62,259 bases of DNA from a virus (lineage: Duplodnaviria; Caudoviricetes): the IMG/VR virus record IMGVR_UViG_3300026068_000006, positions 1-62,259 of that record. One strand, given 5' to 3'. Position 1 is the first letter of the stretch. Every line of letters begins with the position of its first letter. The notes beneath the pieces are model-generated. The model was not told where the DNA came from. It ran no database searches and saw only the letters and a list, made by a program, of their open reading frames with translations. The translations under genes and the position numbers were made by a program. Positions 16,343 to 62,259 of this stretch are shown in pieces.

Positions 16343-16380
16343 AGAGACTGCTTTATACGGCAAAGCAGTCTCTTTTTTTT
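16343..16380 (+). terminator. Intrinsic terminator
   Basis: AGAGACTGCTTT / AAAGCAGTCTCT followed by a T run. Confidence 0.9.
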
Positions 16381-16403
16381 GTTCTATTTCATTAGAACAC
16401 TAC

Positions 16404-16466
16404 ATTAAAGTATCGTAAATATTGTTTTTGCCCTATTGACATTATTTACAGACTGGTTTATAATAG
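16404..16466 (+). promoter_or_regulatory. Repeated promoter P copy 1 (palindrome overlapping -35)
   Basis: TTGACA 16436-16441, 17 bp, TATAAT 16459-16464. Confidence 0.9.
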
Positions 16467-16508
16467 AGATAGAAATTGATTGATTGACTAAAAAATAGGA
16501 GAGTAAAA

Positions 16509-17023: not shown

Positions 17024-17308
17024 ATGAACGCAAGAATGAGAACAGAAATGACATACGGAGAGAAACTTTTGTTTGAGCTTAGAGAAAAGCAAGCAAAGGA
17101 AACTTTGGCTAAATTCGAGAAAGCAGAAAAGACAGGATTTCTGGCGGTCGGCAATGGCAAGGTTGTTCATCTTGCCACAGCGGACCAGAGTCATACATTG
17201 TGTGGAGCGGAAGGTGTAGGTTCCGCTCAGGTTCGCACGCAAATTTTGAATTTGCGGATTGTAACAGGTCCTGCGACCTGTAAACGTTGTATCGCAAATT
17301 GCAAATAG
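17024..17308 (+). CDS. Hypothetical Zn-binding cassette protein
   Basis: VH...TLCG...ATCKRC. Confidence 0.8.
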   Translation: MNARMRTEMTYGEKLLFELREKQAKETLAKFEKAEKTGFLAVGNGKVVHLATADQSHTLCGAEGVGSAQVRTQILNLRIVTGPATCKRCIANCK

Positions 17309-17362
17309 TTTGGTTCCAAATTTTAGTCGCTCAGAGATGGGCGACTGAGATGTGTGACTAAA
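17309..17362 (+). repeat. 54-nt hairpin repeat A copy 1
   Basis: TTTGGTTCCA-AA-TTTTAGTCGCTCA-GAGA-TGGGCGACTGAGA-TG-TGTGACTAAA. Confidence 0.92.
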
Positions 17363-17384
17363 GATAGTAAACAGGAGAGACTAA

Positions 17385-17632: not shown

Positions 17633-18058
17633 ATGAAAGCGATAAGATGGCTGGGAGCGTTCAGAAAAAGCAGTAAGTCTCTTAACGAGAGTTTGGTATA
17701 CGAACTCTCCCGGCCGGCTACTGATGAAGTAGCCGCCGAGCCACTTGATGACGAGCCGTCAGTAGTAGCCGCCAAAGTAGGGTTATTGATCGAGAAGGGC
17801 GCTATTAAAAAAGTTTTCAATGGTGACTGCTGGTCGGAATATGGAGATGATGGCCGTCTCTACAAGACCAGGAATCCCCGACGGGCCTGGTCAAACCATA
17901 GAGAGGTGTGGGCCTCTCCGCAGTATACGGGTATTGTTCTCAAGGGCAAGGACTTGCCCAAGAGGACAACAAAAACCATTATATGGGTAAGCGAACAGTA
18001 TGGCTTGCCCATATATAAACTGGACAAAAAAGGCGAGATGAAGCAGATCGTCCTTTAG
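17633..18058 (+). CDS. Hypothetical cassette protein
   Basis: 141 aa; the stop lies inside repeat A copy 2. Confidence 0.8.
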   Translation: MKAIRWLGAFRKSSKSLNESLVYELSRPATDEVAAEPLDDEPSVVAAKVGLLIEKGAIKKVFNGDCWSEYGDDGRLYKTRNPRRAWSNHREVWASPQYTGIVLKGKDLPKRTTKTIIWVSEQYGLPIYKLDKKGEMKQIVL

Positions 18059-18094
18059 TCGCTCAGAGATGGGCGATTGGGATGTGAGATTAAA
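18054..18094 (+). repeat. Hairpin repeat A copy 2 (left outer arm missing)
   Basis: TTTAGTCGCTCA-GAGA-TGGGCGATTGGGA-TG-TGAGATTAAA. Confidence 0.9.
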
Positions 18095-18129
18095 CAATTT
18101 ATGGCTCGTAAGGGCCAAAGGAGAACAAT

Positions 18130-18531
18130 ATGGAAAAAATTCATAAAAGTGATTTCCCGGCCGAATTTCGGTTGGATACAGATCATCCCGTGTTTGTCGC
18201 CCGCTTTGACAAATATATCAAGGTAAGCACTATCGCCCTCGTTGTAGCAGAATTACAAACTGGCATAAGACTGGTTTCATTACTTCTCCAAAACGTAAAA
18301 CCAGCCACTCCGGACCAGTTTGACGATCTAGTTAGACGCAGAGTTTGTCTTTTGGAGGCTATAAACAATGTGGATACATCTTGTTACAGGATGTATATAG
18401 ACCAGTTTACCAACGTGGAAGCTGCTCTAAACGCTTGCGAGTTCCCCGATGCGCAAGTGATCAGTTTTGTCAAAACCGGAGGGGGACATGACGAAGACCC
18501 TGTTCGTAGTGTACTTGTCATAAAGGTGTAG
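18130..18531 (+). CDS. Hypothetical cassette protein
   Basis: Bounded by repeat B and repeat A. Confidence 0.85.
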   Translation: MEKIHKSDFPAEFRLDTDHPVFVARFDKYIKVSTIALVVAELQTGIRLVSLLLQNVKPATPDQFDDLVRRRVCLLEAINNVDTSCYRMYIDQFTNVEAALNACEFPDAQVISFVKTGGGHDEDPVRSVLVIKV

Positions 18532-18533
18532 CG

Positions 18534-18588
18534 TTTAATCACAAATTTTAGTCGCTCATCCCCTGAGCGACTGAGATATGTGGTTAAA
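18534..18588 (+). repeat. Hairpin repeat A copy 3
   Basis: Loop TCCCC; compensatory changes in both stems. Confidence 0.92.
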
Positions 18589-18623
18589 TTATTAGTGCCC
18601 CGTAAGGGCCAAAGGAAAACAAG

Positions 18624-19460
18624 ATGAATGATGAACATTTGAAGATTTTGAAATCAGGCGTCACCACTTGGAACGCCTGGCGGAAAGCGAACCCGGATAT
18701 TATTCCGGATTTGAGTATGGCCAATCTGGAAGGGGCCGATCTGGGCAACGTCAATTTGACTAGAGTCTGTCTGGCCTGGGCCAATCTACGCGGGGCCAAT
18801 CTACGCGGCGCCAAATTGAATGGGGCCATTTTGGTCGGGGCTAATTTGCACGGCGCCAATTTGAGTGAGGCCAATTTGAGCGAGACCAATTTGGAAGGGG
18901 CCAATCTGAGGGAGGTTAATCTGGCCGAGGCCAAACTATATAGGGTCAATCTACGCAGGGCCAATTTAAGTGGGGCCAATTTAAGTGGGGCCAAGCTGAC
19001 CGATGCTGATTTGTGCGAGGCCAATTTGAGCGATACTGATTTGAGATCGGCCTATCTGTATAGGGCCGATCTGGGCGAGGCCGATCTTGGCCGGGCCGAC
19101 TTGACCAGAGCCAACTTGGGTAGGGCCAATTTGGTTGGGGCCAAGCTACACAGGGCCAAGCTACACAGGGCCAATCTGCGCAGGGCCAGCTTGAGCGAGG
19201 CCAATCTGCGCGAGGCCAACTTGAGCGAGGCCGATTTGAGTTGGGCCGATCTGGGCCAGGTTGACTTTAGTGCGGCCAAGTTAAGCGAGGTCAATTTGTA
19301 CAAGGCCGATTTGAGCGGGGCCAACTTGAGTAATGCCGATTTAAGCGGAGCCGATTTGAGTGTAGTCAATTTTGTCGGGACAAACTTAAGCGGGGCTAAT
19401 TTGACCGGCGTAAATTACTCTAATCAGACAATTTGGCCGGACGGGTTTACGTTAGTTTAG
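18624..19460 (+). CDS. Pentapeptide-repeat protein 1
   Basis: A(N/D)Lxx repeats; N-cap GVTTWNAWR; C-cap TIWPDGFTLV. Confidence 0.95.
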   Translation: MNDEHLKILKSGVTTWNAWRKANPDIIPDLSMANLEGADLGNVNLTRVCLAWANLRGANLRGAKLNGAILVGANLHGANLSEANLSETNLEGANLREVNLAEAKLYRVNLRRANLSGANLSGAKLTDADLCEANLSDTDLRSAYLYRADLGEADLGRADLTRANLGRANLVGAKLHRAKLHRANLRRASLSEANLREANLSEADLSWADLGQVDFSAAKLSEVNLYKADLSGANLSNADLSGADLSVVNFVGTNLSGANLTGVNYSNQTIWPDGFTLV

Positions 19461-19502
19461 TGGCAAAATTATTTATGGCCCACAAGGGCCGAAGGGGAAG
19501 AA

Positions 19503-19934
19503 ATGAACGTTGAACATTTGGAAAAATTGGAAGCGGGCATCACTACTTGGAACGCCTGGCGGCTAGAAAATTCGGGCGTTATCCCGGATTTGGCCGGGGC
19601 TGATCTGCGCGAGGTCGATCTGAGCGAGGTCGATCTGGAAGGGACTGATCTGATTGGGGCTAATCTACACAGGGCCAATCTGCGCAGGGCCGATCTGCGC
19701 GGGGCCAATTTGAATAAAGCCAATTTAACCTGGGCCAAATTGGAAGGAGCGGACCTGAGCTGGGCCAACCTTAGCAACGCTGATTTAAGTGGAGCCAATT
19801 TGGACGGTGCCAATTTGTACAGGGCTGATCTGCGCGGGGCCAATCTGCGTAGAGCCGACTTAAACGGGGCCAATTTGACCGGCGTAAATCATTCTACTCG
19901 GACAATTTGGCCAGATGGGTTCACGTTAGTTTAG
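19503..19934 (+). CDS. Pentapeptide-repeat protein 2
   Basis: Same caps as protein 1, fewer repeats. Confidence 0.95.
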   Translation: MNVEHLEKLEAGITTWNAWRLENSGVIPDLAGADLREVDLSEVDLEGTDLIGANLHRANLRRADLRGANLNKANLTWAKLEGADLSWANLSNADLSGANLDGANLYRADLRGANLRRADLNGANLTGVNHSTRTIWPDGFTLV

Positions 19935-19980
19935 CCTTAAAATTATTTATGGCCCATTAGGGTCAAAGGAATAAAGAATA

Positions 19981-20301
19981 ATGAAAAAAATAGATAGGGC
20001 GCGCAAAGAGACTGAAAGTCTGGCCCGCTTTTTGGAAAAGCGAGAATGGATTAACGCAGACAAATTGCCTCTTGTCTTCGAGGAGGCAGCCGATACAATA
20101 GCGAAAATTGAATTTTTCGCTATTACTAATACGATAGCAAAACTGGAGAAATATTTAGCGGAGGCCCGTGGCTGGGCCGAAAATAAACAGACTGGCATGA
20201 ATGGTCAACCACTCAGGATAAATAAAAAAGAACAGGAAAAAGCCAGAGCAGAAGCGAATAGGATTGAAAGAACTATCGCTAAACTCAGGGAGCTTATATG
20301 A
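19981..20301 (+). CDS. Hypothetical helical protein
   Basis: Starts behind repeat B. Confidence 0.8.
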   Translation: MKKIDRARKETESLARFLEKREWINADKLPLVFEEAADTIAKIEFFAITNTIAKLEKYLAEARGWAENKQTGMNGQPLRINKKEQEKARAEANRIERTIAKLRELI

Positions 20302-20525
20302 TATGGCAGCACAACCGTGAAAGAGGGCGTGGGCGTATACATCTAGTCACATCGGACGGCCGGTTGTTTTGTACTAATCGACAAATTGCCCAGCCTCTTT
20401 TGTGGTCTAAAATAGATCATGTCAATAGCATTTTTTTTAGAAATTGGGCTTGTAGAAAATGCTTGTCCAAGTATTTAATAGGTCCACAAGGGCCGAAGGA
20501 GCAAAATGAACACCGAACATTATAA
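20298..20525 (+). CDS. Hypothetical Zn-binding protein
   Basis: IH...LFC...ACRKC, same pattern as 17024; ATGA overlap. Confidence 0.65.
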   Translation: MIWQHNRERGRGRIHLVTSDGRLFCTNRQIAQPLLWSKIDHVNSIFFRNWACRKCLSKYLIGPQGPKEQNEHRTL

Positions 20526-21465
20526 CGTTTTAAGGTCTGGCATAGGAGTTTGGAACGCCTGGCGACGGGCCAATCCACATATAGCCCCGGATTTGAGCGA
20601 GGCGGATTTGAGCGAGGTTGATCTGACCAGGGCTGATTTGCGTTGGGCCAAGTTGCACGGGGCCAATCTGAGCGAGGCCAATCTAGCTGACGCCAATCTG
20701 AGCGACACCGATCTTAGCTTCGCCAATCTTGATTTGGCCAAGCTACACAGGGCCAATCTGCGTAAGGCCGATTTGTTCAGGGCCAATCTACGCAGAGCCG
20801 ATTTGAGCGAGGCCAATTTGTTCAGAGCCAACTTACACGGGGCCGATCTGCATGAAGCCATTTTACACAGGGCCATTTTGCACGAATCCAACCTTAGTGA
20901 GGCAGATTTGACCGGAGTTGATTTAAGCGAGGCTGGTATCAGGGCCAACTTAAAAAGGGCCGATTTGTACAAAGCTGATTTAAGCGAGGCTGACCTGAGT
21001 GGGGCTATTCTTATCGAGACCGATATAATTGAGACCAATTTGTACAAGGCAAATTTGAGTAAAGCGGAATTGTGTGGGGCTGATTTACGCAGAGCCGGAT
21101 TGTCTGGCGCCGACTTGCACAAAGCCAACTTGTTTCAAGTCAACCTGACCGAGGCTGATTTGGGCGGGGCCAATCTAAGTGATGTTGACTTGGGCGGGGC
21201 CAACTTGAGTAATGCCAATCTAAACAGGGCCAATTTAAGCAGGGCCAATCTAACCGGGACGAACTTAAGCGGGGTTAAAGGTATCGTTGTCTCTCTTGAT
21301 CAGCACGGGCATACACTGGTCAGTTGGCAGCATGGCGAGGCTGTAGGTTTTACGGCCGGCTGTCACTCTTTTGCTACCGCCAGAGAAGCGATAATTTACT
21401 GGGAAGTGGCCGACTGTTCGTATTTAGAATTCATAGATTTCCACCTTAAATGTTGGCTAGATTAA
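20506..21465 (+). CDS. Pentapeptide-repeat protein 3 with an alternative C-terminal domain (DUF5758-like)
   Basis: Repeats followed by GHTLVSWQHGEAVGFTAGCHSF. Confidence 0.93.
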   Translation: MNTEHYNVLRSGIGVWNAWRRANPHIAPDLSEADLSEVDLTRADLRWAKLHGANLSEANLADANLSDTDLSFANLDLAKLHRANLRKADLFRANLRRADLSEANLFRANLHGADLHEAILHRAILHESNLSEADLTGVDLSEAGIRANLKRADLYKADLSEADLSGAILIETDIIETNLYKANLSKAELCGADLRRAGLSGADLHKANLFQVNLTEADLGGANLSDVDLGGANLSNANLNRANLSRANLTGTNLSGVKGIVVSLDQHGHTLVSWQHGEAVGFTAGCHSFATAREAIIYWEVADCSYLEFIDFHLKCWLD

Positions 21466-21523
21466 AATATCGTAAATAATGTCCTTGCCCTATTGACATT
21501 ATTTACGATATGGTATATAATAG
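21461..21523 (+). promoter_or_regulatory. Repeated promoter P copy 2
   Basis: Perfect 17-bp inverted repeat 21467-21483 / 21495-21511; TTGACA 21493, TATAAT 21516. Confidence 0.92.
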
Positions 21524-21558
21524 AACTAGAAGTTAATTATTATTAAACAGGTCACAAA

Positions 21559-21936: not shown

Positions 21937-22815
21937 GTGATCAAAAAGGGGGACATTCGCATAATAGCTCCCCGATTGGCCAGTCAATCAGTGAACTGTA
22001 TCGTGACCAGCCCCCCATATTGGGGATTGCGCGATTATGGACATGCTGACCAAATTGGGCTTGAGCCAACGCCGGAAGCATACGTGCAAACAATGGTCGG
22101 CGTCTTTGGGGAATTGCATCGCGTACTGAGAGATGACGGCACGCTGTGGCTAAATCTGGGAGATACGTTTGTCGCCAAAAACCTTGTTGGCATCCCCTGG
22201 CGGGTGGCCCTGGCCTTGCAAGCGGATGGGTGGTATCTGCGGAGCGATATTATATGGAGTAAGCCCAATTGTATGCCGGAGAGCGTAACAGACCGCCCTA
22301 CAAAAGCTCACGAATATTTATTTCTATTGAGCAAGACAGAATCGTATTACTACGACCAGGATGCGATCAGAGAGCCTAATTCAATGAATCGGCCCCGCAA
22401 AAATCGAAACAATTCGACTACCTTTAAGCGCAACGGCTCAAAGCGCGAACAAACAATACCGGGGCAAGGTTACGGCACCCATCGGCCGGATAGAAGCGAT
22501 ACGGACTACAATCCACTTGGCCGAAATAAACGGTCCGTATGGGAAGTCAGTCTGAGAGCCTATGGCGGTGCGCATTTCGCAGTCTTTCCGCCTGATTTAA
22601 TCGAGCCGTGTATCCTGGCCGGTTGTCCTCCTGGGGGGATCGTGCTTGATCCATTTTTTGGCAGTGGCACAGTAGGACAGGTGGCCATAAAAACCGGTCG
22701 CAATTGGCTTGGAATTGAAATAAACTCGGATTATATCAAGCTGGCAGAGGAACGGATAAACGGTACCCAATTGCCTTTAATAGTACCCGGTTCTGAGGCG
22801 AACAAGCTGTGCTAA
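21937..22815 (+). CDS. DNA N4-C/N6-A methyltransferase (beta class)
   Basis: VTSPPYW, IIWSKPNCMP, HFAVFP, LDPFFGSGT. Confidence 0.93.
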   Translation: MIKKGDIRIIAPRLASQSVNCIVTSPPYWGLRDYGHADQIGLEPTPEAYVQTMVGVFGELHRVLRDDGTLWLNLGDTFVAKNLVGIPWRVALALQADGWYLRSDIIWSKPNCMPESVTDRPTKAHEYLFLLSKTESYYYDQDAIREPNSMNRPRKNRNNSTTFKRNGSKREQTIPGQGYGTHRPDRSDTDYNPLGRNKRSVWEVSLRAYGGAHFAVFPPDLIEPCILAGCPPGGIVLDPFFGSGTVGQVAIKTGRNWLGIEINSDYIKLAEERINGTQLPLIVPGSEANKLC

Positions 22816-22831
22816 ATCTGTAGAACGCCAG

Positions 22832-22892
22832 ATTAAAATATCGTAAATATTGTCTTTTCCCTATTGACAATATTTACGAACTGGTATATAAT
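22832..22892 (+). promoter_or_regulatory. Repeated promoter P copy 3
   Basis: 14-bp inverted repeat 22841-22854 / 22866-22879; TTGACA 22864, TATAAT 22887. Confidence 0.92.
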
Positions 22893-22944
22893 ATATTTAT
22901 AAATAGATTGATTAACTGGCTCTAATGGGCCAAAGGAGAACAAG

Positions 22945-23178
22945 ATGGATAACATAAGAAAAGAACAAGAAAAATTTATGGTTCGGCTGGAAAAAATCCT
23001 CACCCGAATGGGAGAGGATGACTTATTAGATTACCGGGCGAACGAGGCCGTTTGGATCGCCCAGTATGGGCCAGATGATCATCTGGCGATCCGGGCGAAC
23101 GAGGCCGAAACCCGAGGCACGGGCCACTTCCATCATCTAAAATGGCGGAAGGACCGAGAAGAGCTACCGAAGGTTTAG
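22945..23178 (+). CDS. Hypothetical cassette protein (starts MDNIR)
   Basis: Repeat B start; stop supplied by repeat A. Confidence 0.8.
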   Translation: MDNIRKEQEKFMVRLEKILTRMGEDDLLDYRANEAVWIAQYGPDDHLAIRANEAETRGTGHFHHLKWRKDREELPKV

Positions 23179-23227
23179 CCCCAAGTTTTAGCCGCCCAGT
23201 CTTGGGCGGCTAAGATGTGAGACTAAA
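23174..23227 (+). repeat. Hairpin repeat A copy 4
   Basis: Loop GTCT. Confidence 0.93.
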
Positions 23228-23264
23228 TTATTAGCTGGCCCGTGATGGGCCAAAGGAGAACAAG

Positions 23265-23516
23265 ATGGATAACATAAGATTAACAATGGTTTACAATCGG
23301 CAGATAAGCGATATGCCGGGATCGACCGGCACCATCCGTATTGTTTGCGGGCACTGTATTGACCAAGATCCAATTGCGACTCTTGGGTTCGATGTTGAAT
23401 GTGAGCTTTTAGATGGTAGACCTTGGCGAGAAGTTGTTGCCAAGAAGTTGGGGGAAGACCCCAGGTGGCGGTATCGGCCCCATACAAACTGTCGGCACAC
23501 CAAAGGGTTCGTTTAG
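23265..23516 (+). CDS. Hypothetical cassette protein (starts MDNIR)
   Basis: Repeat B start; stop supplied by repeat A. Confidence 0.8.
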   Translation: MDNIRLTMVYNRQISDMPGSTGTIRIVCGHCIDQDPIATLGFDVECELLDGRPWREVVAKKLGEDPRWRYRPHTNCRHTKGFV

Positions 23517-23565
23517 CCCCAAGTTTTAGCCGCCCAAGACTGGGCGGCTAAGATGTGAGACTAAA
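23512..23565 (+). repeat. Hairpin repeat A copy 5
   Basis: Identical to copy 4 except the loop, AGAC. Confidence 0.93.
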
Positions 23566-23601
23566 CAATTATCAGGCCCAAGCGGGCAGAAGGAGAATAA
23601 A

Positions 23602-23796
23602 ATGAAAGTCGAAGAATGTATCAAGAATTTAATTGCCGACACAAGCGCCGGGGGGAAAGGGTACGCCAATGCGTGCCAATTGTGGAGGGGTTTTGGTGAT
23701 ATGGGCCAGCGACCCTACGGCTGGTGGCTAAAGCCGTTTGGAGAAACAGCCCGTTTTATTGGGCGAAGCTGGAAAGAGATCAAGGCCGATTGGTAA
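23602..23796 (+). CDS. Hypothetical cassette protein
   Basis: Repeat B start. Confidence 0.8.
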   Translation: MKVEECIKNLIADTSAGGKGYANACQLWRGFGDMGQRPYGWWLKPFGETARFIGRSWKEIKADW

Positions 23797-23801
23797 TTTT
23801 G

Positions 23802-23866
23802 TGAGGGGGTTAATCTCCCCTCCTGCCCGGTAGCCTCAGAGCCAGGCAGAAGCGGGGATTACAACC
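23802..23866 (+). ncRNA. Structured intergenic RNA candidate with a possible pseudoknot
   Basis: Bulged stem GGTT-AATC-CCC-CTGCC / GGCAG-GGGG-ATT-AACC. Loop CCTCA is complementary to upstream TGAGG. Confidence 0.4.
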
Positions 23867-23904
23867 GCTAATTAACAGGTCCATAAGGGCCGAAGGAAAT
23901 AAAA

Positions 23905-24210
23905 ATGGCAACGCAAAAACTAACTCGAAGGTCACGTAAATTTGGATGGGGATATTCATTTACTCCTATCCGAAACACCTGTGACATTACCCGGCCATCG
24001 AAGCCGGATTATGAAGGGACGGTTAGACAGGTATTAAATTGCATCTCGTCTGACCGTACATGGAACGCCAATCGGTCAGCGTTCTCAAGTGCGCAATTTT
24101 TCTTGGACGGAAAGCCTATTTATTTTATAAGCGAATTTGATCTTGACGATCTTTTGGACGGAAGGACTGACGAGATCGAAGTGGCCTATATAAAGGCCGA
24201 AGGAGAATAA
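23905..24210 (+). CDS. Hypothetical cassette protein
   Basis: Repeat B start. Confidence 0.8.
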   Translation: MATQKLTRRSRKFGWGYSFTPIRNTCDITRPSKPDYEGTVRQVLNCISSDRTWNANRSAFSSAQFFLDGKPIYFISEFDLDDLLDGRTDEIEVAYIKAEGE

Positions 24211-24487: not shown

Positions 24488-24581
24488 GCCCAATTTCTAG
24501 GGGCATGCCATAGCAGCATGCTCCCCGCCGGCGCAGCGGGGACGTAAGCCATAGCCGTCCTGAGCAAGACGTTAAAAGGCT

Positions 24582-24637
24582 TCTCTAAACCACTGATACC
24601 CGGTCCCAAGTCCGGGATGTGAGAAGTGCGAGGGGAT
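24582..24637 (+). ncRNA. Twister ribozyme-like motif (type P1, imperfect)
   Basis: UAA..CACU..CCGGUCCCAAGUCCGG..AGUG.GAGGG follows the order of twister core elements. P1 and the T2 pseudoknot are weak. Confidence 0.45.
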
Positions 24638-24675
24638 AAATTTAACTGGCCTGTGATGGGCCGAAGGAGAATGAA

Positions 24676-24948
24676 ATGAACAGTGAACAGAAAAGACATG
24701 CGGAAGCGGTCGTGGCCCGCATAGATGGGGCCAACATTCTGCTGGTCGTCAGCGCGATCACAGATCAGTCGCCGGCTGGCGTCGTCGCAGCCCGCATAGT
24801 TGAGGCCGACATTCTGCTAGATCGACTGTTTTTACAGTCGATCAGAAGTATGTCTGGATCAGCAGACGGGACTCATCTGCGCTATGCTGATCTGAGCGGG
24901 GCCAGCAATTCCGGGAAATCTCGGATGGGCCGAAGGAGAATAAAATGA
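24676..24948 (+). CDS. Hypothetical protein, degenerate pentapeptide-repeat relic
   Basis: Internal 29-nt duplication; LRYADLSGA fragment. Confidence 0.55.
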   Translation: MNSEQKRHAEAVVARIDGANILLVVSAITDQSPAGVVAARIVEADILLDRLFLQSIRSMSGSADGTHLRYADLSGASNSGKSRMGRRRIK

Positions 24949-25355: not shown

Positions 25356-25362
25356 GTTTCGA

Positions 25363-25416
25363 TTTAGTCCCAAGTTTCAGTCGCTCAACCCTGGGCGGCT
25401 GAGATGTGTGACTAAA
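25363..25416 (+). repeat. Hairpin repeat A copy 6
   Basis: Loop ACCC. Confidence 0.92.
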
Positions 25417-25435
25417 TCAATTGAAAGGATAAAAA

Positions 25436-25837
25436 ATGCCGAGAATAGCGGGCAGTCCCAAAGGGTTTCTTTCCTCAAAAGAAACCCAAAAAATATTAAA
25501 GATGGGCCGGCAGGCGTTTTGGCAAGCTGGCCTAAGTGAGTTTTTGCAGTATTACAAAATTGGCCAAGTCCGCCTGTATGTCCAGGAGGACGTAATCAAT
25601 ATGCGTCATTATCTCATGATCCAACGGGGTCTGGCGGCGCTTGGTTTGATTACACCATCACCGCCTGCCCCGTTATTGCCGCCGGGAGAGACGGCAAAAG
25701 AGAAGCGCAACTATTTTGATGGTTGGCTAGTAGAGGACTTGTATAGCGTACCATGTCCTCAGTGTGATGGTATGGCGGTCACGAGTCCAGATGAAAACGG
25801 GCCAGTCTGGTGTGAGAAGTGCGGGATAAAAAAATGA
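25436..25837 (+). CDS. MerR/Xis-like HTH protein with C-terminal Zn ribbon
   Basis: FLSSKETQKIL...KIGQVRLYVQEDV; CPQC...CEKC. Confidence 0.6.
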   Translation: MPRIAGSPKGFLSSKETQKILKMGRQAFWQAGLSEFLQYYKIGQVRLYVQEDVINMRHYLMIQRGLAALGLITPSPPAPLLPPGETAKEKRNYFDGWLVEDLYSVPCPQCDGMAVTSPDENGPVWCEKCGIKK

Positions 25838-26682
25838 ATTATGAAATTTTATTAAAATCAGGCGCCGAAAATTGGAACGCCTGGCGGAAGAAAAATTATC
25901 AGATTATTCCTGACCTACGTGGGGCCAATTTGGTTGGGGCCAATCTGGAAGGGACTTATCTGATTGGGGTCAATCTGAGCGAGGCCAACTTGATTGAAGC
26001 TAATTTGTGTAGGTCTTATCTGGCTGAAGTGAATCTAAAAAAAGCCAGCTTGAAAAGAGCCGATTTGGCCGGAGCTTATTTGTATGGGGCCGATCTGAGC
26101 GAGGCCGACCTACGTGGGGCCAATTTGGTCGGGGCCGATCTGTATGGGGCCAACTTGAGTAAAACCGATCTGATTAGGGCCAATTTGCATGAGGCCGATC
26201 TGCATGGGTCCAATTTGCATGAGGCCAACCTGTACAAAGCCGATTTGGGCGAGGCTGATCTAACCGGGTCTAATCTAACAAATGCCAATCTATACGGGGC
26301 CAATCTGGAAAGGGCCAATTTGCATCTGACCAATTTGCCCATGGCCAATCTGATCGGGACCAATCTGGCCATGGCTGATCTGAGTAGTGCCAATCTGACC
26401 GCGGCCAAGCTGCACGAGGCCGATCTGTCCGGGGCTAACTTGAGCGGGGCCAAGATGGTCAGGGTTAAAGGCATTTTTTATACCTCCTTTGATTTACGGG
26501 GATGGACTTTGGTCAGTTGGCGACACAATGAAGTGGTGGGTTTTACGGCCGGTTGCTATTCTTTTACCACCCCGGATGAGGCAAGAGCCCATTGGGGAGC
26601 GCCCGGATATCCAGACAAGAATCGTGGCCAAATGTATCTGGAATGCATCGAATTCCACCTGGCTCGTTGGCAAGAGATTTAA
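25834..26682 (+). CDS. Pentapeptide-repeat protein 4 with the alternative C-terminal domain
   Basis: ATGA overlap; C-terminal GWTLVSWRHNEVVGFTAGCYSF is shared with protein 3. Confidence 0.93.
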   Translation: MNYEILLKSGAENWNAWRKKNYQIIPDLRGANLVGANLEGTYLIGVNLSEANLIEANLCRSYLAEVNLKKASLKRADLAGAYLYGADLSEADLRGANLVGADLYGANLSKTDLIRANLHEADLHGSNLHEANLYKADLGEADLTGSNLTNANLYGANLERANLHLTNLPMANLIGTNLAMADLSSANLTAAKLHEADLSGANLSGAKMVRVKGIFYTSFDLRGWTLVSWRHNEVVGFTAGCYSFTTPDEARAHWGAPGYPDKNRGQMYLECIEFHLARWQEI

Positions 26683-26732
26683 TCCCGGCTTTCAGTCGCT
26701 CATCCTCTGGGCGATTGAGATGTGAGATTAAA
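26678..26732 (+). repeat. Hairpin repeat A copy 7
   Basis: Loop TCCTC; supplies the TAA stop. Confidence 0.92.
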
Positions 26733-26743
26733 TAGAACAAAAC

Positions 26744-26806
26744 ATTAAAATATCGTAAATAATTGTCTTATCCTATTGACAATATTTACGAACTGGTATA
26801 CAATAG
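26744..26806 (+). promoter_or_regulatory. Repeated promoter P copy 4
   Basis: TTGACA 26776-26781, 17 bp, TACAAT 26799-26804. Confidence 0.88.
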
Positions 26807-26845
26807 ACTTATAAATAGATTATATTAGATTGAGGAGAGTAAAAG

Positions 26846-27283
26846 ATGAAGATAAAAGAATTTACAAAAATGATAGAGAAGGCAATCGAGAAGCACAGGA
26901 TCAACCAACAGTCGTCAGATGAATACGCTGAATATAGCTATTACGGTCTGAGATTTGAAAACAAAGACCGGGAAGTTGGCGAGATGTGCGGTAATTCTCA
27001 TCACAATTTCGAGCGGGAAGATGAGAGGGAGTTTCCCGAATACGGAACTGATGAGTACGAAGAGATGATTGAGCTGGATGGCACATCAGCTTGGTACATC
27101 TCAGACGCTGGAAAATTTGACCGAAAGGTCTATACCGGCGAATGGCAAGAAGAAGATAGCACTCTGATGGTTGTCACAGACCATTGTTACATTATCGGTG
27201 GCCAAACGGAAGGCTCACACGACAGTCCTGATGCCGGGGAAATTCTAATTCAGGATGCAGTAGTAGTTGAAAAGTTATTCTAA
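26846..27283 (+). CDS. Acidic hypothetical protein
   Basis: RBS GAGGAG; D/E-rich. Confidence 0.85.
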   Translation: MKIKEFTKMIEKAIEKHRINQQSSDEYAEYSYYGLRFENKDREVGEMCGNSHHNFEREDEREFPEYGTDEYEEMIELDGTSAWYISDAGKFDRKVYTGEWQEEDSTLMVVTDHCYIIGGQTEGSHDSPDAGEILIQDAVVVEKLF

Positions 27284-27345
27284 TCTCGAAACCGCCTTCG
27301 GGCGGTCAGCCGGAATTGGCCCACTGGCTCTGATGAGAGAGGCCA
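27284..27345 (+). ncRNA. Hammerhead ribozyme, type II
   Basis: TCTC-GAAA-CCGCC(TTCG)GGCGG-TC^-AGCCGG(loop)CTGGCT-CTGATGA-GAGA. Loop TGGCC pairs with the 3' GGCCA. Confidence 0.95.
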
Positions 27346-27380
27346 TATAAACAAGGTCCGTAAGGGCCGAAGGAGATAGA

Positions 27381-27521
27381 ATGAATAATTTTGATATGGA
27401 AATCTGGCTTGATGACTCGGATTTGGAAGAGCAATTGCGTCAACTTCAAGAGATCGAAGATGGCGCAGAGGATGTAGAGCATCCGGATACTCAATATTCG
27501 GATTATCCTTGGGCAGTTTAA
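27381..27521 (+). CDS. Very acidic small protein (46 aa), not in the ORF track
   Basis: Repeat B start; stop in repeat A; MNNFDMEIWLDDSDLEEQ... Confidence 0.75.
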   Translation: MNNFDMEIWLDDSDLEEQLRQLQEIEDGAEDVEHPDTQYSDYPWAV

Positions 27522-27570
27522 TTCCAGCTTTTAGTCGCTCAGGGATGGGCGACTGAGATGTGTGATTAAA
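27517..27570 (+). repeat. Hairpin repeat A copy 8
   Basis: Loop GGGA. Confidence 0.92.
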
Positions 27571-27604
27571 TTATTAAGGTCCGCAAGGGCCGAAGGAGAA
27601 CAAG

Positions 27605-27781
27605 ATGAAATATCAAATCGAAGTATCGAAAGTCCTTAAAGGACGAAAGACCAATACAGTCCGGCTCAAGCCAAGGCTGTCCATTGAAGATGTGGCTTAT
27701 TGGCAGGAGCGAATCGCCTGGTTGCTTGACAAATCAGACGTGGTAACTTGCCGCGTCGCCAAGAATGAGGTGGTTAAATGA
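27605..27781 (+). CDS. Small hypothetical protein (58 aa)
   Basis: Repeat B start. Confidence 0.7.
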   Translation: MKYQIEVSKVLKGRKTNTVRLKPRLSIEDVAYWQERIAWLLDKSDVVTCRVAKNEVVK

Positions 27782-27935: not shown

Positions 27936-28895
27936 TTGATGGCATTATTAATACCAGCCGGGTTAGACCTCGGCAATCGCAGTACTCAGATTCATCTACT
28001 CGGCAAAAGCGCGTCGATTCCGAGCGTGATTGGTTTTGACGCGCCAATCATTATCGGCGCCAAAGGCACCGAGGTTAAAGCTCAGGCCTTTAGTTTACTC
28101 TTTCGGGTAGATGACAAGGACCATCAACTTTGGTTTGGGCGTGACGTTCTGGCGTCTCAATCTATTTTACAAGAGATCGACGCCACCAAATATTCCAAGG
28201 TTACAATCCAGCGACTGTTTCAGGCTGTCTTATTCGAGTGGGCCAGCATACACAAGCAAGATTTAAGTACGCTTGGCAAACTCAACATAGTGGCTTCCAT
28301 GCCGCCTGGGTTGTATCAAAAACCAGCCATTTTAAAGTTGGCCGAAAGCGCTTATCGGTCAGCGTTTAACACTGGCCAAAGCCATCAGAAAATACGACCC
28401 GTCAGCGGTGAAGCCATCCAAATTGTGACAAAGTTTGGTGGTCTGGTGCGCGAGGCGGTCCTATTTGGCCAAGACATTCCGCGCAAAAATGAACTAGTCT
28501 TAATAGTCGATCTTGGCGGTGGCACTACCGATTTCGCTCTATTCAACGGGTCTGACAAGCCACTGGATACCAAAACAGTCAACAACGGGTTACTCCACGT
28601 CTATCAGGATGTGGATTTTGTCAACCCGCAAAAAGTCGAACTTCGCATAATGAGCGATAGAAGCTATTTTCCAAATCAGCTTTTAGCTTATTATAACGGA
28701 ATTAAGTTGATGATCAGTGCGGTTATCCGCAAGTTACCGCGCACACCCGATAAAATTTATCTGATCGGTGGCGGTGCTGCACTAATGCCCAAGCCAATTA
28801 GAGCCAGTTTTAAGCAGTTGGCGCGAGAAGTGATCATCAAAGATCAGTATGTTAATGCCATTTCAAACTGGAAGGAGGCGGGCAAAGGCGTATGA
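27936..28895 (+). CDS. parM: ParM/StbA-like actin-family ATPase
   Basis: Phosphate-1 GLDLGNRSTQ, E-A connect motif, phosphate-2 IVDLGGGTTD, adenosine YLIGGGA. Confidence 0.85.
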   Translation: MMALLIPAGLDLGNRSTQIHLLGKSASIPSVIGFDAPIIIGAKGTEVKAQAFSLLFRVDDKDHQLWFGRDVLASQSILQEIDATKYSKVTIQRLFQAVLFEWASIHKQDLSTLGKLNIVASMPPGLYQKPAILKLAESAYRSAFNTGQSHQKIRPVSGEAIQIVTKFGGLVREAVLFGQDIPRKNELVLIVDLGGGTTDFALFNGSDKPLDTKTVNNGLLHVYQDVDFVNPQKVELRIMSDRSYFPNQLLAYYNGIKLMISAVIRKLPRTPDKIYLIGGGAALMPKPIRASFKQLAREVIIKDQYVNAISNWKEAGKGV

Positions 28896-32547: not shown

Positions 32548-33089
32548 GTGCTTTTGTGAGAGTTGCAGACAAGTTACGCGATAGTAAATTTATTATCCCG
32601 ATTACCCTGGCAGTTATGTTGGGGATAATTATCAGTGCTTTTGCCTTTTACGAGGATTATCAATCTTCATTACATGGTTATGAGATGTTGCCTACTCGGA
32701 AATCAGGCGAGGAAGTGATACAGATGATTGCCTTGCTCCCTCAAGTGGGCCAGATTATCTTCTTCTACCTGTTCGGGAATAGCGTGGAGGTGTTGCCAAA
32801 TGGCAGACGGCGCATCAATTACATCTACTTTATTGTCGCTTCTTTTTTGCTCTTTTTTGATTTGGGGACTGACATGTATTACAAAGCTTCGGGCGCTTTT
32901 TGGCCTGTCTGGATTATTGCTTTCGTAGAGTCTATCACCGTCTTTACCATTGGCAGCGAGATGCTCCTAACCGCCTCACTGGGTCTTTTCTTTGAGTTGG
33001 CCCCGGAAGCGATCAAGCAACTGGGCCAGTTTTTTGGAGCGTTTTTGGGTGAGGATGAGGACGCTCCGACCATTGCGTCACGGAGGTAA
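32544..33089 (+). CDS. Multi-pass membrane protein
   Basis: About four hydrophobic segments. Confidence 0.75.
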   Translation: MSAFVRVADKLRDSKFIIPITLAVMLGIIISAFAFYEDYQSSLHGYEMLPTRKSGEEVIQMIALLPQVGQIIFFYLFGNSVEVLPNGRRRINYIYFIVASFLLFFDLGTDMYYKASGAFWPVWIIAFVESITVFTIGSEMLLTASLGLFFELAPEAIKQLGQFFGAFLGEDEDAPTIASRR

Positions 33090-33090
33090 A

Positions 33091-33750
33091 ATGAACACCG
33101 AACATTTGGAAACCTTAAAAGCGGGCGTCGCTACTTGGAACAATTGGCGGATGAAACACCGAGAAGTTATCCCGGACTTGGCCGGGGCCAATCTGGTTGG
33201 GGCCAATCTGGACGGGGCCGACTTGTGTGCGGCCGACTTGTGTGCGGCCGACTTGCGCGGGGCTAACCTGACCAGGGCCAAGCTGGTTGGGGCCAAGCTG
33301 CACGAGGCCGATCTGTCCGGGGCCGACTTGAGCGTGGCCAATCTACACAGGGCCTATCTGCGCGGGGCTAATTTGAGTGGGGCTAACCTGAACCAAGCCG
33401 ATCTGCGTGGGGCCAATCTGGTCAGGGCCAATTTGGCCCAAGCCAATCTGATCAGGGCCAAGTTTGGTGGGGCCAACCTGAACGGGGCCAAGCTGCGCCA
33501 GGCCGATTTGAGCGGGACCGACTTGACCAAGGCCGATTTACATCAAGCCGACCTAAGCAGCGCTAACCTGCGCGGGGCCAATCTAATTGCGGCCGGCTTG
33601 ACCGGTGCTAACCTGCACGAGGCCAAGCTGAATGGGGCCAATTTGAGTGACGCCAATTTGGACTGGGCCAAGCTGGACGGGGCCGACTTGACCGGGGCCA
33701 GTCACGATGACCAAACAATTTGGCCGGACGGGTTCACGCCCGCCGTTTAA
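33091..33750 (+). CDS. Pentapeptide-repeat protein 5
   Basis: RBS GGAGG; MNTEHLETLKAGVATWNNWR; C-cap TIWPDGFTPAV. Confidence 0.95.
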   Translation: MNTEHLETLKAGVATWNNWRMKHREVIPDLAGANLVGANLDGADLCAADLCAADLRGANLTRAKLVGAKLHEADLSGADLSVANLHRAYLRGANLSGANLNQADLRGANLVRANLAQANLIRAKFGGANLNGAKLRQADLSGTDLTKADLHQADLSSANLRGANLIAAGLTGANLHEAKLNGANLSDANLDWAKLDGADLTGASHDDQTIWPDGFTPAV

Positions 33751-33799
33751 TCTCAAGTTTCAGCCGTTCAGGGATGGGCGGCTGAGATGTGTGACGGGG
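33746..33799 (+). repeat. Hairpin repeat A copy 9
   Basis: Loop GGGA; right end degenerate; supplies the TAA stop. Confidence 0.88.
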
Positions 33800-33836
33800 A
33801 GGGCCGACTAAATAAAAAAATGAAAGTGAGGCTGAT

Positions 33837-35810: not shown

Positions 35811-35865
35811 TACAATTTAATATATTTAAGGTAATTCTAATATGGCGTTCTAAAATTAGAACGTA

Positions 35866-35894
35866 TTGACATATTATCCTGACGCGTTTATAAT
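35866..35894 (+). promoter_or_regulatory. Sigma-70 consensus promoter for the modification/packaging operon
   Basis: TTGACA-17-TATAAT. Palindrome CGTTCTAA-AA-TTAGAACG lies just upstream (35846-35863). Confidence 0.85.
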
Positions 35895-35934
35895 ATCAGT
35901 GAGGTAGTCGCATTAGTATAGGAGGATAGCGGCA

Positions 35935-49670: not shown

Positions 49671-49974
49671 TTGGTTTTTGTTCGCGCTGCTAACTCTGGT
49701 AGTCTATAGAGCATCTCAATTGCTTGTTTATGATGATGGCCCATTCGATTTGATTTTTAGATTTCGCGCAAGGGTAGGCGTTTATACCCTTGATCAAAAT
49801 GGAGAGCCAACATCAGCGGTCGGCAAACTGTTTGCTTGCCCTTACTGTGTAGGATTTTGGTTGGCGGCATTGGCGGCTTTGACGGTAGCCGGTAGTGGTA
49901 AAAGTTTTATCATCCTGTGGTTGGCCATTGCGGGCGGTCAAACATTTTTGGAGGCATATCATGGCAAGAGGTGA
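49663..49974 (+). CDS. DUF1360-like membrane protein
   Basis: YRASQLLVYDDGPF; LFACPYCVGFW. Confidence 0.7.
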   Translation: MPDWFLFALLTLVVYRASQLLVYDDGPFDLIFRFRARVGVYTLDQNGEPTSAVGKLFACPYCVGFWLAALAALTVAGSGKSFIILWLAIAGGQTFLEAYHGKR

Positions 49975-51301
49975 CCCAGTTGAATTTGTCAGGGAGATAA
50001 ATGGCGGCGCAAAATATCAGCGTGTCGGGAATCGTGTCCAGCTTGAGGACGCCTATGGAGCATCTATTTCTATCCCGTCACTTGACGCTTTTGGCAGAAG
50101 TCGAATAAGCCAACCTTATACACTGTTTGATAGTAAGCAAGTCTGGAACGATCCGGGTTTGGCAGACAATGTTGAAAACTACCCGTTGTTTTGGGACAAC
50201 CAGCAGACGGCTGGTGGCGGCACGACTACGACATTTAACGTTAACCGGGCCAGTACTACACTGTCAGTCTCGGCCAGTACGGCCGGCACACGAGTACGAC
50301 AAACCAAACAGCGATTTAACTATCAGCCCGGCAAGTCACAGCTTGTTATCCTGACTGGTATATTTGGGAGTACGCCCAGTGGCGTGACCAAACGATACGG
50401 GTATTTTGACAGTAGTAATGGTTTCTTCTTCCAGAATATCGGCGGCACATGGTCTGTGGTTATCAGATCGTTTGTAACAGGTGCGGCAATTGACCGTACT
50501 GCCAATCAAGCCGACTGGAATATTGACACCCTGGACGGCAATGGGCCAAGCGGAATTAACATTAACCAGTTAACTGCTCAGATATTTTTTGTTGACTTCG
50601 AGTGGCTGGGAGTTGGTGATATGGCGTTCGGGTTTTTTGTTGACCGGCAACCGATCTATTGCCACGTTTTCAGGAACGCAAACATATTAACATCTGTCTA
50701 TATGTCAACGCCTAATCTGCCGATCAGAGCCGAGATTATCAATAGTGGTGCCGGCGCGGCGAGTCAATTGGAGCTTGTGTGTACCACGGTCGTCAGCGAG
50801 GGAGGTGTACAGCCAAACGGAACGATGCGTTTTGCGGACATTGGTGACACGCCAGCGGAAGACATATCTGCGCCAACGGCAGGGCAGGCTTATGCCCTTT
50901 GTGGTATACGGTTAAAGACGGCCTATCTATCAGCCGATGTCAAGGAGAGTTTCATCTCGGTCATCGAGAACTCCGGGGCTAACAATGCGTTCATTTGGCG
51001 ATTGCATTTTAACCCGACGATTGCAGTGGCATTAACCTATGCAGATGTGGCAAATAGTGCTGTCCAATTCGGATCGGGCAATAAGGCTACTCCGGCCAAT
51101 AATGAGATAAGTGCCTTTGGGACTGTGGTAGCCGGTGGTTATCAGGCCAGAACAGACGCCAGCGCATTGGCGTCGCTGCAATCCGCATTGAGGCTGGGCA
51201 GTCTGATAGACGGCACGCGAGATGAGCTTGTACTATCGGCGGCCGGCATTACAAGCAACAATCTATTTTACGCAGGTATACAATGGGGGGAGGCGTGGTA
51301 A
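49961..51301 (+). CDS. Putative virion structural protein (beta-rich)
   Basis: DAFGRSR..PYTLFDSK, YQPGKSQ, EWLGVG; RBS GGAGG before ATG 49961. Confidence 0.6.
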   Translation: MARGDPVEFVREINGGAKYQRVGNRVQLEDAYGASISIPSLDAFGRSRISQPYTLFDSKQVWNDPGLADNVENYPLFWDNQQTAGGGTTTTFNVNRASTTLSVSASTAGTRVRQTKQRFNYQPGKSQLVILTGIFGSTPSGVTKRYGYFDSSNGFFFQNIGGTWSVVIRSFVTGAAIDRTANQADWNIDTLDGNGPSGININQLTAQIFFVDFEWLGVGDMAFGFFVDRQPIYCHVFRNANILTSVYMSTPNLPIRAEIINSGAGAASQLELVCTTVVSEGGVQPNGTMRFADIGDTPAEDISAPTAGQAYALCGIRLKTAYLSADVKESFISVIENSGANNAFIWRLHFNPTIAVALTYADVANSAVQFGSGNKATPANNEISAFGTVVAGGYQARTDASALASLQSALRLGSLIDGTRDELVLSAAGITSNNLFYAGIQWGEAW

Positions 51302-61121: not shown

Positions 61122-62233
61122 TGCCTATACTCAACAGTACGAATTTCATTCTCGAATCGATAGACGCCGATGGGGAGCGCGGGGGCTGGCAGGCTACCGG
61201 GTCATTTGCCAACGATCAGGCAGATGCGGTTTACGGCCGGCGCGTAGATATTTATTTTTGGCCGGAAGGGAATCGAATATGGGCCAACGATCCGTTGTTA
61301 GCGTTGTCGGGCAGCATTTTGCCGGAGGGTGTCAGATGGGACATCAGGCAAAGCGCGACCGCTTTTGGGGTGACAACGACCAATTATTTTTTGGACATCA
61401 GCGCCTTGAGAGGTATCTGGTTTACAAGCGCTGATCCTGTCACCAATCCTCATGAGTATGTCGATCTGCGATTGGGGACTATTATCAAACATATCATAGA
61501 GCAGCATAGCAATATCTCAAGCACCGGTGTGGTACAAAATGATGACGGCACATTTTCCGCGAATCCTATTGGCGGTTGGTCGGATACTACCAATATTGAC
61601 ACAACTAACAGCACGGTAGTAGATGCGTTTACAAGGCGACAAAGTAATAGCTTGTGGCAGGCGATAAAAGACATTGCTAGGAACGAGTTTTACGTGGCCT
61701 ATTTTAGTAAAGACGATGCGTTTAACTATGAGCCTCATCCTGTATTCAAGGTCGTGCTTGACCCATTTACACTGGACATAGACGCCACTATGATTGTCGG
61801 TCAGCCTGAGATAAAATTTAGAGACAAGACAGGTTTGGACCAGGCGGTTTTGGCGGCGCTGACCGATACCGGAGAGATATTAAACGCAGAGTATCCGGCC
61901 GTGACTGCAATCCAAGGCCGCAGCTTGAATATTACCAATCTCAGGTGTAATGACCAGAGTAGATTGGATGATCTGGCCCAGCGAGTTTATCTATTCGAGA
62001 GTCGGCCGTATGATTTGAGATTGCAATTGCCTGGCCCGGCTGGTCTTTATTTGGAGCTATTTGATCGAGTGTCATTGACCTATACCGGCACTGCCCGTAA
62101 TGGGGTCAGTCTCTCATTTGTTGATGAGCCATTTTTTGTTCAGCGCATCAGGGTAAATCGGATTGGCAATTTTGGGGCCATTACCGAATTGGAATTGTCA
62201 CAGGAAAATTTGAGTGGAGGGTCTTATTCCTGA
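61121..62233 (+). CDS. Putative tail tip / baseplate hub protein
   Basis: Position; LWQAIKDIA and LELFDRVSL patterns. Confidence 0.6.
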   Translation: MPILNSTNFILESIDADGERGGWQATGSFANDQADAVYGRRVDIYFWPEGNRIWANDPLLALSGSILPEGVRWDIRQSATAFGVTTTNYFLDISALRGIWFTSADPVTNPHEYVDLRLGTIIKHIIEQHSNISSTGVVQNDDGTFSANPIGGWSDTTNIDTTNSTVVDAFTRRQSNSLWQAIKDIARNEFYVAYFSKDDAFNYEPHPVFKVVLDPFTLDIDATMIVGQPEIKFRDKTGLDQAVLAALTDTGEILNAEYPAVTAIQGRSLNITNLRCNDQSRLDDLAQRVYLFESRPYDLRLQLPGPAGLYLELFDRVSLTYTGTARNGVSLSFVDEPFFVQRIRVNRIGNFGAITELELSQENLSGGSYS

Positions 62234-62259
62234 CGAAAAATTTATCACCGAAATAGAGA
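62134..62259. repeat. 126-bp terminal direct repeat (right copy)
   Basis: Identical to 8-133. Confidence 0.97.

Follow-up and report, generated by a model that had tools for sequence, protein, structure and literature searches.

A Predicted Type II Hammerhead Ribozyme at a Modular Gene Junction of an Uncultured Tailed Phage

The IMG/VR record IMGVR_UViG_3300026068_000006 represents a complete, uncultured tailed phage and was analysed over its whole length of 62,259 bases (hereafter, the window). Positions 27284-27345 of its + strand hold an element that, by its sequence, is almost certainly a true hammerhead ribozyme of type II, including its pseudoknot tail. The element lies on the same strand as the neighbouring genes: its 5' side is flush with the stop codon of a gene for a protein of 145 amino acids (aa), and its 3' side is followed by a hairpin, a Shine-Dalgarno (SD) sequence, and the ATG of a gene for a 46-aa protein. 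It is quite probable that the element cleaves in vivo, and probable that it is a genuine type II hammerhead that separates the two cistrons, with a role in processing their common transcript. In itself, the finding is a single new example of a known RNA type and is unsurprising; its setting is unusually clean. Since 2011, hammerheads have been known to occur between the genes of phages; according to a 2019 review, their role in bacteria and phages is still largely elusive (PMC6765202). The same review describes the gene associations of such ribozymes as real and unexplained, and it repeats the processing idea as a function still unproven (PMC6765202). An initial annotation of the window, made from its letters and a list of its open reading frames, had likewise called these roles largely unknown.

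Structure and Identity of the Hammerhead

The initial annotation had described a canonical type II hammerhead with a full core, three stems, a UUCG cap, and a 5-base-pair (bp) pairing between loop and tail, and every one of these items is present in the sequence. On the + strand, UCUC (27284-27287) pairs with GAGA (27337-27340) to form the 4-bp stem II, which is followed by GAAA at 27288-27291. Stem III comprises 6 bp (27291-27296 with 27301-27306) and is capped by UUCG (27297-27300), and the cleavage triplet GUC occupies 27305-27307. Stem I also comprises 6 bp, one of them G-U (27308-27313 with 27324-27329), and closes a loop of 10 nucleotides (nt), AAUUGGCCCA; the core motif CUGAUGA then spans 27330-27336. 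Within loop I, UGGCC (27317-27321) pairs with GGCCA (27341-27345), which forms a pseudoknot of 5 bp, where the type II criterion asks for at least 4 bp, and the pseudoknot tail starts at offset 0 from stem II. The predicted scissile bond, 27307..27308, falls at the H17 position between stems III and I. Cleavage after C27307, as originally predicted, thus fits the anatomy of the GUC triplet.

All 13 nucleotides of the conserved hammerhead core (C3 U4 G5 A6 N7 G8 A9, G12 A13 A14, A15.1, U16.1, and H17) are present; they correspond to CUGAUGA at 27330-27336, GAAA at 27288-27291, U27306, and C27307. The standard pairs adjacent to the core are present as well, namely 10.1-11.1 (G27337-C27287), 1.1-2.1 (A27308-U27329), and 15.1-16.1 (A27291-U27306). 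Moreover, the stems are free of mispairs, and the topology is that of type II, in which loops cap both stem I and stem III and stem II is open. Acceptance rules for hammerheads were taken from Perreault et al. 2011, and the element satisfies all of the rules set out there (PMC3088659). In the type II consensus described in that paper, the pseudoknot begins right after stem II and is found in most type II members (PMC3088659).

A search with the Rfam hammerhead models, which had been proposed as a check, returned RF02276 (Hammerhead_II) at 27284-27347 (+), over the full model (1-66), with 38.3 bits against a gathering score of 37 and an E-value of 3.2e-4 (whole window, both strands). RF02276 is the sole Rfam family that reaches its gathering score in the 62-kb window on either strand. 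The score is modest because the model imposes a 9-bp stem I, where the element has 6 bp and a larger loop.

Two other readings of the same letters were discarded. Stem III was considered as a transcription terminator; no U-run follows it, and a terminator scan shows nothing there. An antisense open reading frame at 27306-27494 was regarded as a product of chance.

Chance Occurrence and Folding

A descriptor of our own, run on both strands, required the core and the right topology together with minimum stem lengths of 4/3/4 bp; it matches the window at exactly one site, with stems of 6/4/6 bp and the 5-bp pseudoknot. When the whole window was shuffled with its dinucleotides preserved (n=300, both strands), a match of any kind appeared in one shuffle and stems of 6/4/6 bp in none. 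The same descriptor gave no match in 62 unrelated loci (439 kb).

In the isolated 62-mer, the nested hammerhead fold has a free energy of -20.1 kcal/mol, compared with a minimum of -22.4 kcal/mol for a competing fold. The pseudoknot duplex, which the folding program cannot count, is worth about -7.5 kcal/mol. We infer that the order of transcription favours the formation of stems III and I first. In the predicted fold of the 3' cleavage product, A27308 is paired in stem I.

Organization of the Junction

The gene upstream of the hammerhead (26846..27283, +) encodes the 145-aa protein, which belongs to no Pfam or PHROG family, and ends with TAA at 27281-27283. The gene downstream (27381..27521, +) encodes the 46-aa protein, also without a known family. 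Ahead of both lies a sigma-70-type promoter, TTGACA, 17 nt, TACAAT (26776..26804, +), which agrees with the consensus at 11 of 12 positions and should drive the operon that holds the ribozyme. It is one of five near-identical copies that form repeat family D16. Perfect or near-perfect TTGACA-17-TATAAT promoters occur at 16380-16489, 21437-21546, 22808-22917, 26720-26829, and 35864-35895, and four of these five copies lie within a conserved block of about 110 nt. This arrangement suggests strong early promoters for the host polymerase, duplicated together with their surroundings.

Between the hammerhead and the ATG at 27381 stands a copy of a repeated module, repeat B (repeat families D11, D12, D14, and D15). 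It consists of a hairpin with a 5-bp stem (GGUCC, GUAA, GGGCC; 27355..27368, +) and the SD sequence GAAGGAG (27369..27375, +), located 5 nt ahead of the start codon. The earlier description of the hammerhead as starting right after the stop codon and ending just before repeat B holds, with two small corrections: the element abuts TAA without any spacer, and the gap to the hairpin at 27355-27368 is 9 nt (27346-27354), not 10.

In its general form, repeat B joins a tetraloop-capped hairpin of 5 bp to a ribosome binding site of the GAAGGAG type and a start codon. Copies are located at 18096-18130, 18590-18626, 19468-19500, 20472-20505, 22911-22947, 23231-23267, 23566-23604, 23869-23907, 24642-24678, 27346-27383, and 27569-27607. 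The module precedes many early genes, either after processing-type elements or directly behind the promoter at 22864; because it also occurs in the latter position, it is a general leader module.

Proposed Processing of the Early Transcript

It was proposed by Perreault et al. that flanking hammerheads process long phage transcripts into mRNAs of gene length, and the paper reports cleavage of such phage transcripts in vitro (PMC3088659). Applied to the window, the hammerhead would be transcribed within an early, rightward polycistronic mRNA that starts at promoter 26776, and the folded RNA, to judge from its fit to the family, would cut itself after C27307. By the hammerhead chemistry outlined in the 2019 review, C27307 would then bear a 2',3'-cyclic phosphate and A27308 the 5'-OH (PMC6765202). 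The 145-aa and 46-aa cistrons would thereby come to lie on separate RNAs. At its 3' end, the upstream RNA would carry stem III (6 bp, UUCG cap) and the cyclic phosphate. The downstream RNA would have at its start a 5'-OH that is engaged in stem I and held by the pseudoknot, with the hairpin of repeat B and the SD sequence after it. As stem II has only 4 bp, the two products should separate. The presumed purpose of such processing would be to give each cistron defined, hairpin-protected ends and to uncouple the stability and translation of the neighbours. Host RNase III sites in the T7 early transcript, and the engineered insulator RiboJ in synthetic operons, serve the same end. Since the first base of the ribozyme directly follows the stop codon, a terminating ribosome must cover its 5' part; speculatively, folding and cutting would probably take place only after the ribosome is released.

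The same arrangement can also be read as a means of lowering or gating the expression of the downstream genes, either by exposure of the 5'-OH to a host 5' exonuclease, as with glmS in Bacillus, or by a dependence of cleavage on whether the upstream gene is being translated. Stem II directly adjoins the stop codon, and ribosomes must therefore disturb folding; in addition, the alternative structure in which the core is buried has a slight advantage in stability over the nested hammerhead. The 145-aa gene family comes from Bacillota, where RNase J1 acts on 5'-OH ends. Moreover, regulated hammerheads are raised as a possibility by Perreault et al. (PMC3088659). Such a role is nonetheless unlikely. 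With A27308 paired in stem I and the loop locked by the pseudoknot, the new 5' end would not be single-stranded, and the dedicated hairpin and SD module downstream, which is of the kind found at promoter-proximal genes, looks made for expression and not for decay. The element also contains neither a ligand-binding domain nor any extra sequence.

Ribozymes Beside Relatives of the 145-aa Gene in Other Phages

For the 145-aa protein, 46 relatives were found; the named ones and all 10 loci from isolate or metagenome-assembled genomes belong to Bacillota, mostly to Paenibacillus. The relatives P0002-P0010 share 64-74% identity with it. The loci examined for ribozymes were 52 metagenome loci (identity of at most 61%) and 42 viral records that encode relatives, with several contigs common to both sets. 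An Rfam scan of the metagenome loci revealed a ribozyme that reaches its cut-off, on the strand of the gene, in 5 of 52: twister-sister in L072, L073, L074, and L076, and pistol in L071. Our descriptor alone, with Rfam silent at E <= 0.05, adds L082 as a sixth locus, with a clean hammerhead of type I. Among the viral records, a type II hammerhead occurs in 4 of 42, two twister-sisters in 1 of 42, and pistols at the cut-off or better in 2 of 42. The Rfam model of type I hammerheads found no match in the 42 viral records, but it was equally silent on the control genomes, so this blank is uninformative; the model missed the L082 candidate as well. The controls, 12 unrelated viral loci (142 kb), yielded one tRNA and no ribozyme, and a type II hammerhead was found in none of 16 records with relatives of the capsid protein.

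The placement of these ribozymes recalls that in the window. No base separates the ribozyme from the preceding stop codon in L073, L071, L082, and L158. The twister-sisters of L074 and L163 begin 2 nt past the homologue's own stop codon and have an SD sequence and a start codon behind them. An SD sequence and a start codon follow the ribozyme in all of the metagenome contexts printed (L071, L073, L074, L076, and L082). The hammerhead of L158 starts right after TAA and has a stem III capped by UUCG. One viral record, G025 (L124/L162/L163), carries, all on a single strand, two twister-sisters with the homologue between them and, ahead of these, a likely type I hammerhead; the hammerhead, which was read by eye, has a bulged A in stem II and lies about 25 nt upstream of the first twister-sister. 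In the group L124/L162/L163 (G025), L074, and L076, twister-sisters flank the homologue on both sides.

When five type II hammerheads were aligned, the core was invariant. According to a script, the pairing between loop and tail is made from different letters in 4 of 5: UGGCC/GGCCA in the window, AGCCU/AGGCU in L160 (5 bp), UAGCCU/AGGCUG in L161 (6 bp), and a pairing of 3 bp in L158; the hammerheads of distant relatives compared in this way are not at sites orthologous to that in the window. A further contig, L115, carries three clustered regularly interspaced short palindromic repeats at 349-504 (Rfam CRISPR-DR3); it was fetched through a weak match of 30 residues and is probably unrelated.

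L074 and L163 agree in every one of 60 nt at the end of the upstream gene, and the twister-sister that follows differs, which suggests that ribozymes are exchanged at a fixed junction. This observation, together with the presence of four ribozyme classes on either side of the same gene family in different phages, would also agree with a ribozyme that marks the boundary of a mobile cassette with the 145-aa family and is kept by linkage or selfish spread, or with paired ribozymes that serve to make circular or spliced RNA; the reason for ribozyme-gene associations is given as unknown in the 2019 review (PMC6765202). Yet only a single confirmed ribozyme stands beside the gene in the window, so two-cut excision or a circle would not be possible unless a further repeated element (repeat A, described below) cleaves too. 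Perreault et al. state that they sought spliced or circular products and found none (PMC3088659), and the order of stop codon, element, hairpin, and SD sequence is common to many unrelated genes of the window. A cassette boundary or a source of circular RNA is thus a very improbable explanation.

Several observations weigh against a genuine, cleaving hammerhead that processes this transcript. The Rfam score exceeds its cut-off by only 1.3 bits, and the isolated 62-mer has its minimum free energy in a different fold from the hammerhead, with CUGAUGA hidden. No ribozyme was detected in 47 of the 52 metagenome loci, in 35 of the 42 viral records (for the three classes that gave matches), or, by the descriptor, in any of the 10 bacterial genome loci. 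Since most homologous loci are without a detected ribozyme, the gene does not require one. Three of the four type II hammerheads in the viral records are far from the homologue and on the opposite strand, and all of these phages may come from a host group that is rich in ribozymes. The comparison at the site itself consists of identical contigs from four DNA runs (4 of the 18 runs that contain the stretch), with no variant in or near the ribozyme, so it offers no orthologous compensatory change; all 18 runs are wetland metagenome DNA, and none is on record as RNA. Finally, the stabilising role of the new ends is one that we infer, and if the host belongs to Bacillota, RNase J1 can instead be drawn to a 5'-OH end, as in work on the glmS ribozyme.

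Part of this evidence would suit an element that has the form of a hammerhead without catalysis in vivo, either a structural element between cistrons, which would stop 3' exonucleases or prevent translational coupling, or a decaying relic. The Rfam score barely above the cut-off agrees with it, as does a comparison at the site that consists of identical contigs; the role of repeat A, which occupies the same slot, may be one of structure alone, and some hammerhead-like RNAs are described as inactive in the assays of Perreault et al. (PMC3088659). However, the loss of core or pairs that a relic should show is not seen, the 13 core positions, the core-adjacent pairs, and the pseudoknot all being intact, and a plain hairpin would do a structural job without these features. 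Unrelated ribozyme classes, moreover, occupy the same slot in other phages. A non-catalytic element is therefore distinctly unlikely.

Repeat A and Other Occupants of the Slot

The observation that the hammerhead occupies the slot of another repeated element, repeat A, has stood up: nine copies of repeat A, each of roughly 55 nt, sit at the same junction position, mostly before repeat B. They are located at 17305-17365, 18037-18095, 18530-18590, 23170-23230, 23508-23568, 25359-25419, 26675-26735, 27513-27571, and 33742-33815. All nine copies lie at or just past the end of the upstream reading frame, the upstream stop codon is inside the outer stem in at least four, and the hairpin and SD sequence of repeat B come after most of them. 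Repeat A folds into an outer stem of 7 bp and an inner stem of 13 bp (about 20 bp), with a 5x5 internal loop between the two. In the copy that follows the 46-aa gene, the outer stem pairs 27517-27523 with 27564-27570 (+), with the stop codon at 27519-27521 within it, and the inner stem pairs 27529-27541 with 27546-27558 (+), the 5x5 internal loop lying between the stems. The copy at 33742 has an insertion ahead of the 3' half of its outer stem. Across the copies, 93.9% of 180 cells are paired, compared with 32-49% after a shift of the partners by 1-3 columns, and in two of the pairs both sides vary (AU/GC 4:4 and UA/CG 5:3).

The initial annotation had taken the position of the hammerhead as evidence that the slot serves RNA cleavage. 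Ribozymes in the same stop-abutting slot in other phages speak for this claim. Repeat A itself matches no Rfam family at E <= 10, and its shape is of the RNase III type. In particular, it has the form of the RNase III signals of T7 early RNA, that is, about two helical turns with an internal loop, between cistrons. By its fold, repeat A resembles processing hairpins of the RNase III type more than any known ribozyme. It is more likely to be a site for RNase III or another host nuclease, or a purely structural insulator, than a ribozyme. A self-cleaving RNA of an undescribed class is a candidate reading, as repeat A shares its slot with known ribozymes here and in other phages, and twister-sister, pistol, and hatchet came to light through the same reasoning from position; the reading is unlikely. 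Within the viral collection, repeat A is private to the phage of the window, its DNA pattern finding no match among viral contigs.

Two further spacers lie in slots of this type and, by analogy, could be new ribozymes. The structured 154-nt spacer at 24488-24641 shares a short motif with repeat A in its 3' part and contains a 16-nt hairpin (24600-24615) that resembles the conserved hairpin of twister. A twister ribozyme at 24559-24638 was considered and rejected (RF03160, RF03154, and RF02684): all three models score far below their cut-offs, with 21.3 versus 37.6 bits for P5, 18.9 versus 67.2 bits for P1, and 10.3 versus 39.9 bits for P3, and control genomes also match the P1 and P3 types at E <= 10. 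Within that region, only the hairpin at 24600-24615 fits twister well. The other spacer, at 23797-23870, is unique and GC-rich, matches no Rfam family at E <= 10, and by eye forms three hairpins with a possible 5-bp pairing between loops.

In a weaker version of the same idea, the phage could use ribozymes and host-nuclease hairpins interchangeably. If true, nature would here provide evidence for enzyme-independent separation of cistrons as the long-sought role of ribozymes in bacteria. The window offers a natural comparison within one genome, namely one junction design with one hammerhead and nine RNase III-like hairpins. With three further ribozyme classes beside the same gene family in other phages, the role of phage ribozymes becomes directly testable. 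Whether ribozymes serve as mRNA processing sites complete in themselves can be tested by swapping the occupants of the slot, and repeat A and the two other spacers are cheap candidates for cleavage assays.

Neighbouring Genes, Relatives, and Host of the Phage

Nearly all genes of the window are on the + strand. A direct repeat of 129 nt, 99% identical, stands at both ends of the record (5-133 and 62131-62259); despite the label of the record as linear, it looks like a terminal repeat or the overlap of a circular assembly. Downstream of the ribozyme, in the same operon, 27936-28895 encodes a 319-aa protein with weak similarity to ParM/partition proteins (PHROG 691 at E = 2e-12; the Pfam ParM domain is below its cut-off). 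Several early genes resemble those of pentapeptide-repeat proteins (18624-19460, 20506-21465, 25819-26682, 32992-33750, and also about 19500-20300) and share related 5' ends (repeat family D6); the gene at 25819-26682 was checked against Pfam, and the rest were judged by a periodicity of 15 nt in their DNA. Pentapeptide-repeat proteins are often DNA mimics, and a role of the predicted proteins against host defences or gyrase is possible.

A search of viral contigs with the 145-aa protein as a single query found no close relatives of the phage. The DNA pattern of repeat B matched 35 viral contigs, 33 of them with a single match. The capsid protein has relatives at 27 loci, with an identity of at most 47%, and the only DNA similarity to known phages is a 150-nt stretch within the 145-aa gene, shared with phages of Paenibacillus. 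A virion structural protein encoded at 49895-51301 has its nearest named relatives, at 32-37% identity, among Synechococcus cyanophages. The host is accordingly uncertain: sequence similarity of the structural protein points to cyanophages, and that of the 145-aa family and the 150-nt DNA match to hosts of the Paenibacillus type.

Comparison with Known Systems

Compared with the type II hammerheads of bacteria and phages (RF02276; PMC3088659), the element in the window has the same core, topology, and pseudoknot and, as in the examples described in that paper, lies between genes on the coding strand. Its stem I is shorter (6 bp) and its loop larger than in the model consensus, and nothing essential differs. 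What sets it apart is its place in a modular junction with a dedicated hairpin and SD unit.

The satellite ribozyme used in RiboJ is of type III. RiboJ, as described in PMC8794103, is a hammerhead combined with a 23-nt hairpin before the ribosome binding site, and the junction in the window has the same order of parts: hammerhead, short hairpin, SD sequence, and start codon (PMC8794103). As in RiboJ, cleavage would give the downstream gene a fixed, structured leader regardless of the upstream sequence. RiboJ, however, is engineered and placed behind a promoter, whereas the element in the window is natural, of type II, and situated between two cistrons. The likeness would thus be one of working principle and not of descent.

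Hammerheads leave a cyclic phosphate and a 5'-OH, whereas RNase III leaves a 3'-OH and a 5'-phosphate. Apart from this difference in ends, the predicted hammerhead cut resembles that at the RNase III sites of T7 early RNA, which are intercistronic, lie in a long early transcript, and leave the upstream mRNA with a 3' hairpin (PMC3867540). There are five such sites in T7 early RNA, and single cuts by RNase III are described as leaving stabilising 3' hairpins (PMC3867540). Unlike them, the hammerhead of the window would require no host enzyme.

Finally, the twister-sister, pistol, and hatchet ribozymes were discovered by a logic of position, and, together with twister, they are described by Weinberg, Weinberg and Hammann 2019 as clusters in which different classes lie near the same gene families and near each other (PMC6765202). 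The family of the 145-aa gene likewise has hammerhead, twister-sister, and pistol ribozymes as its neighbours.

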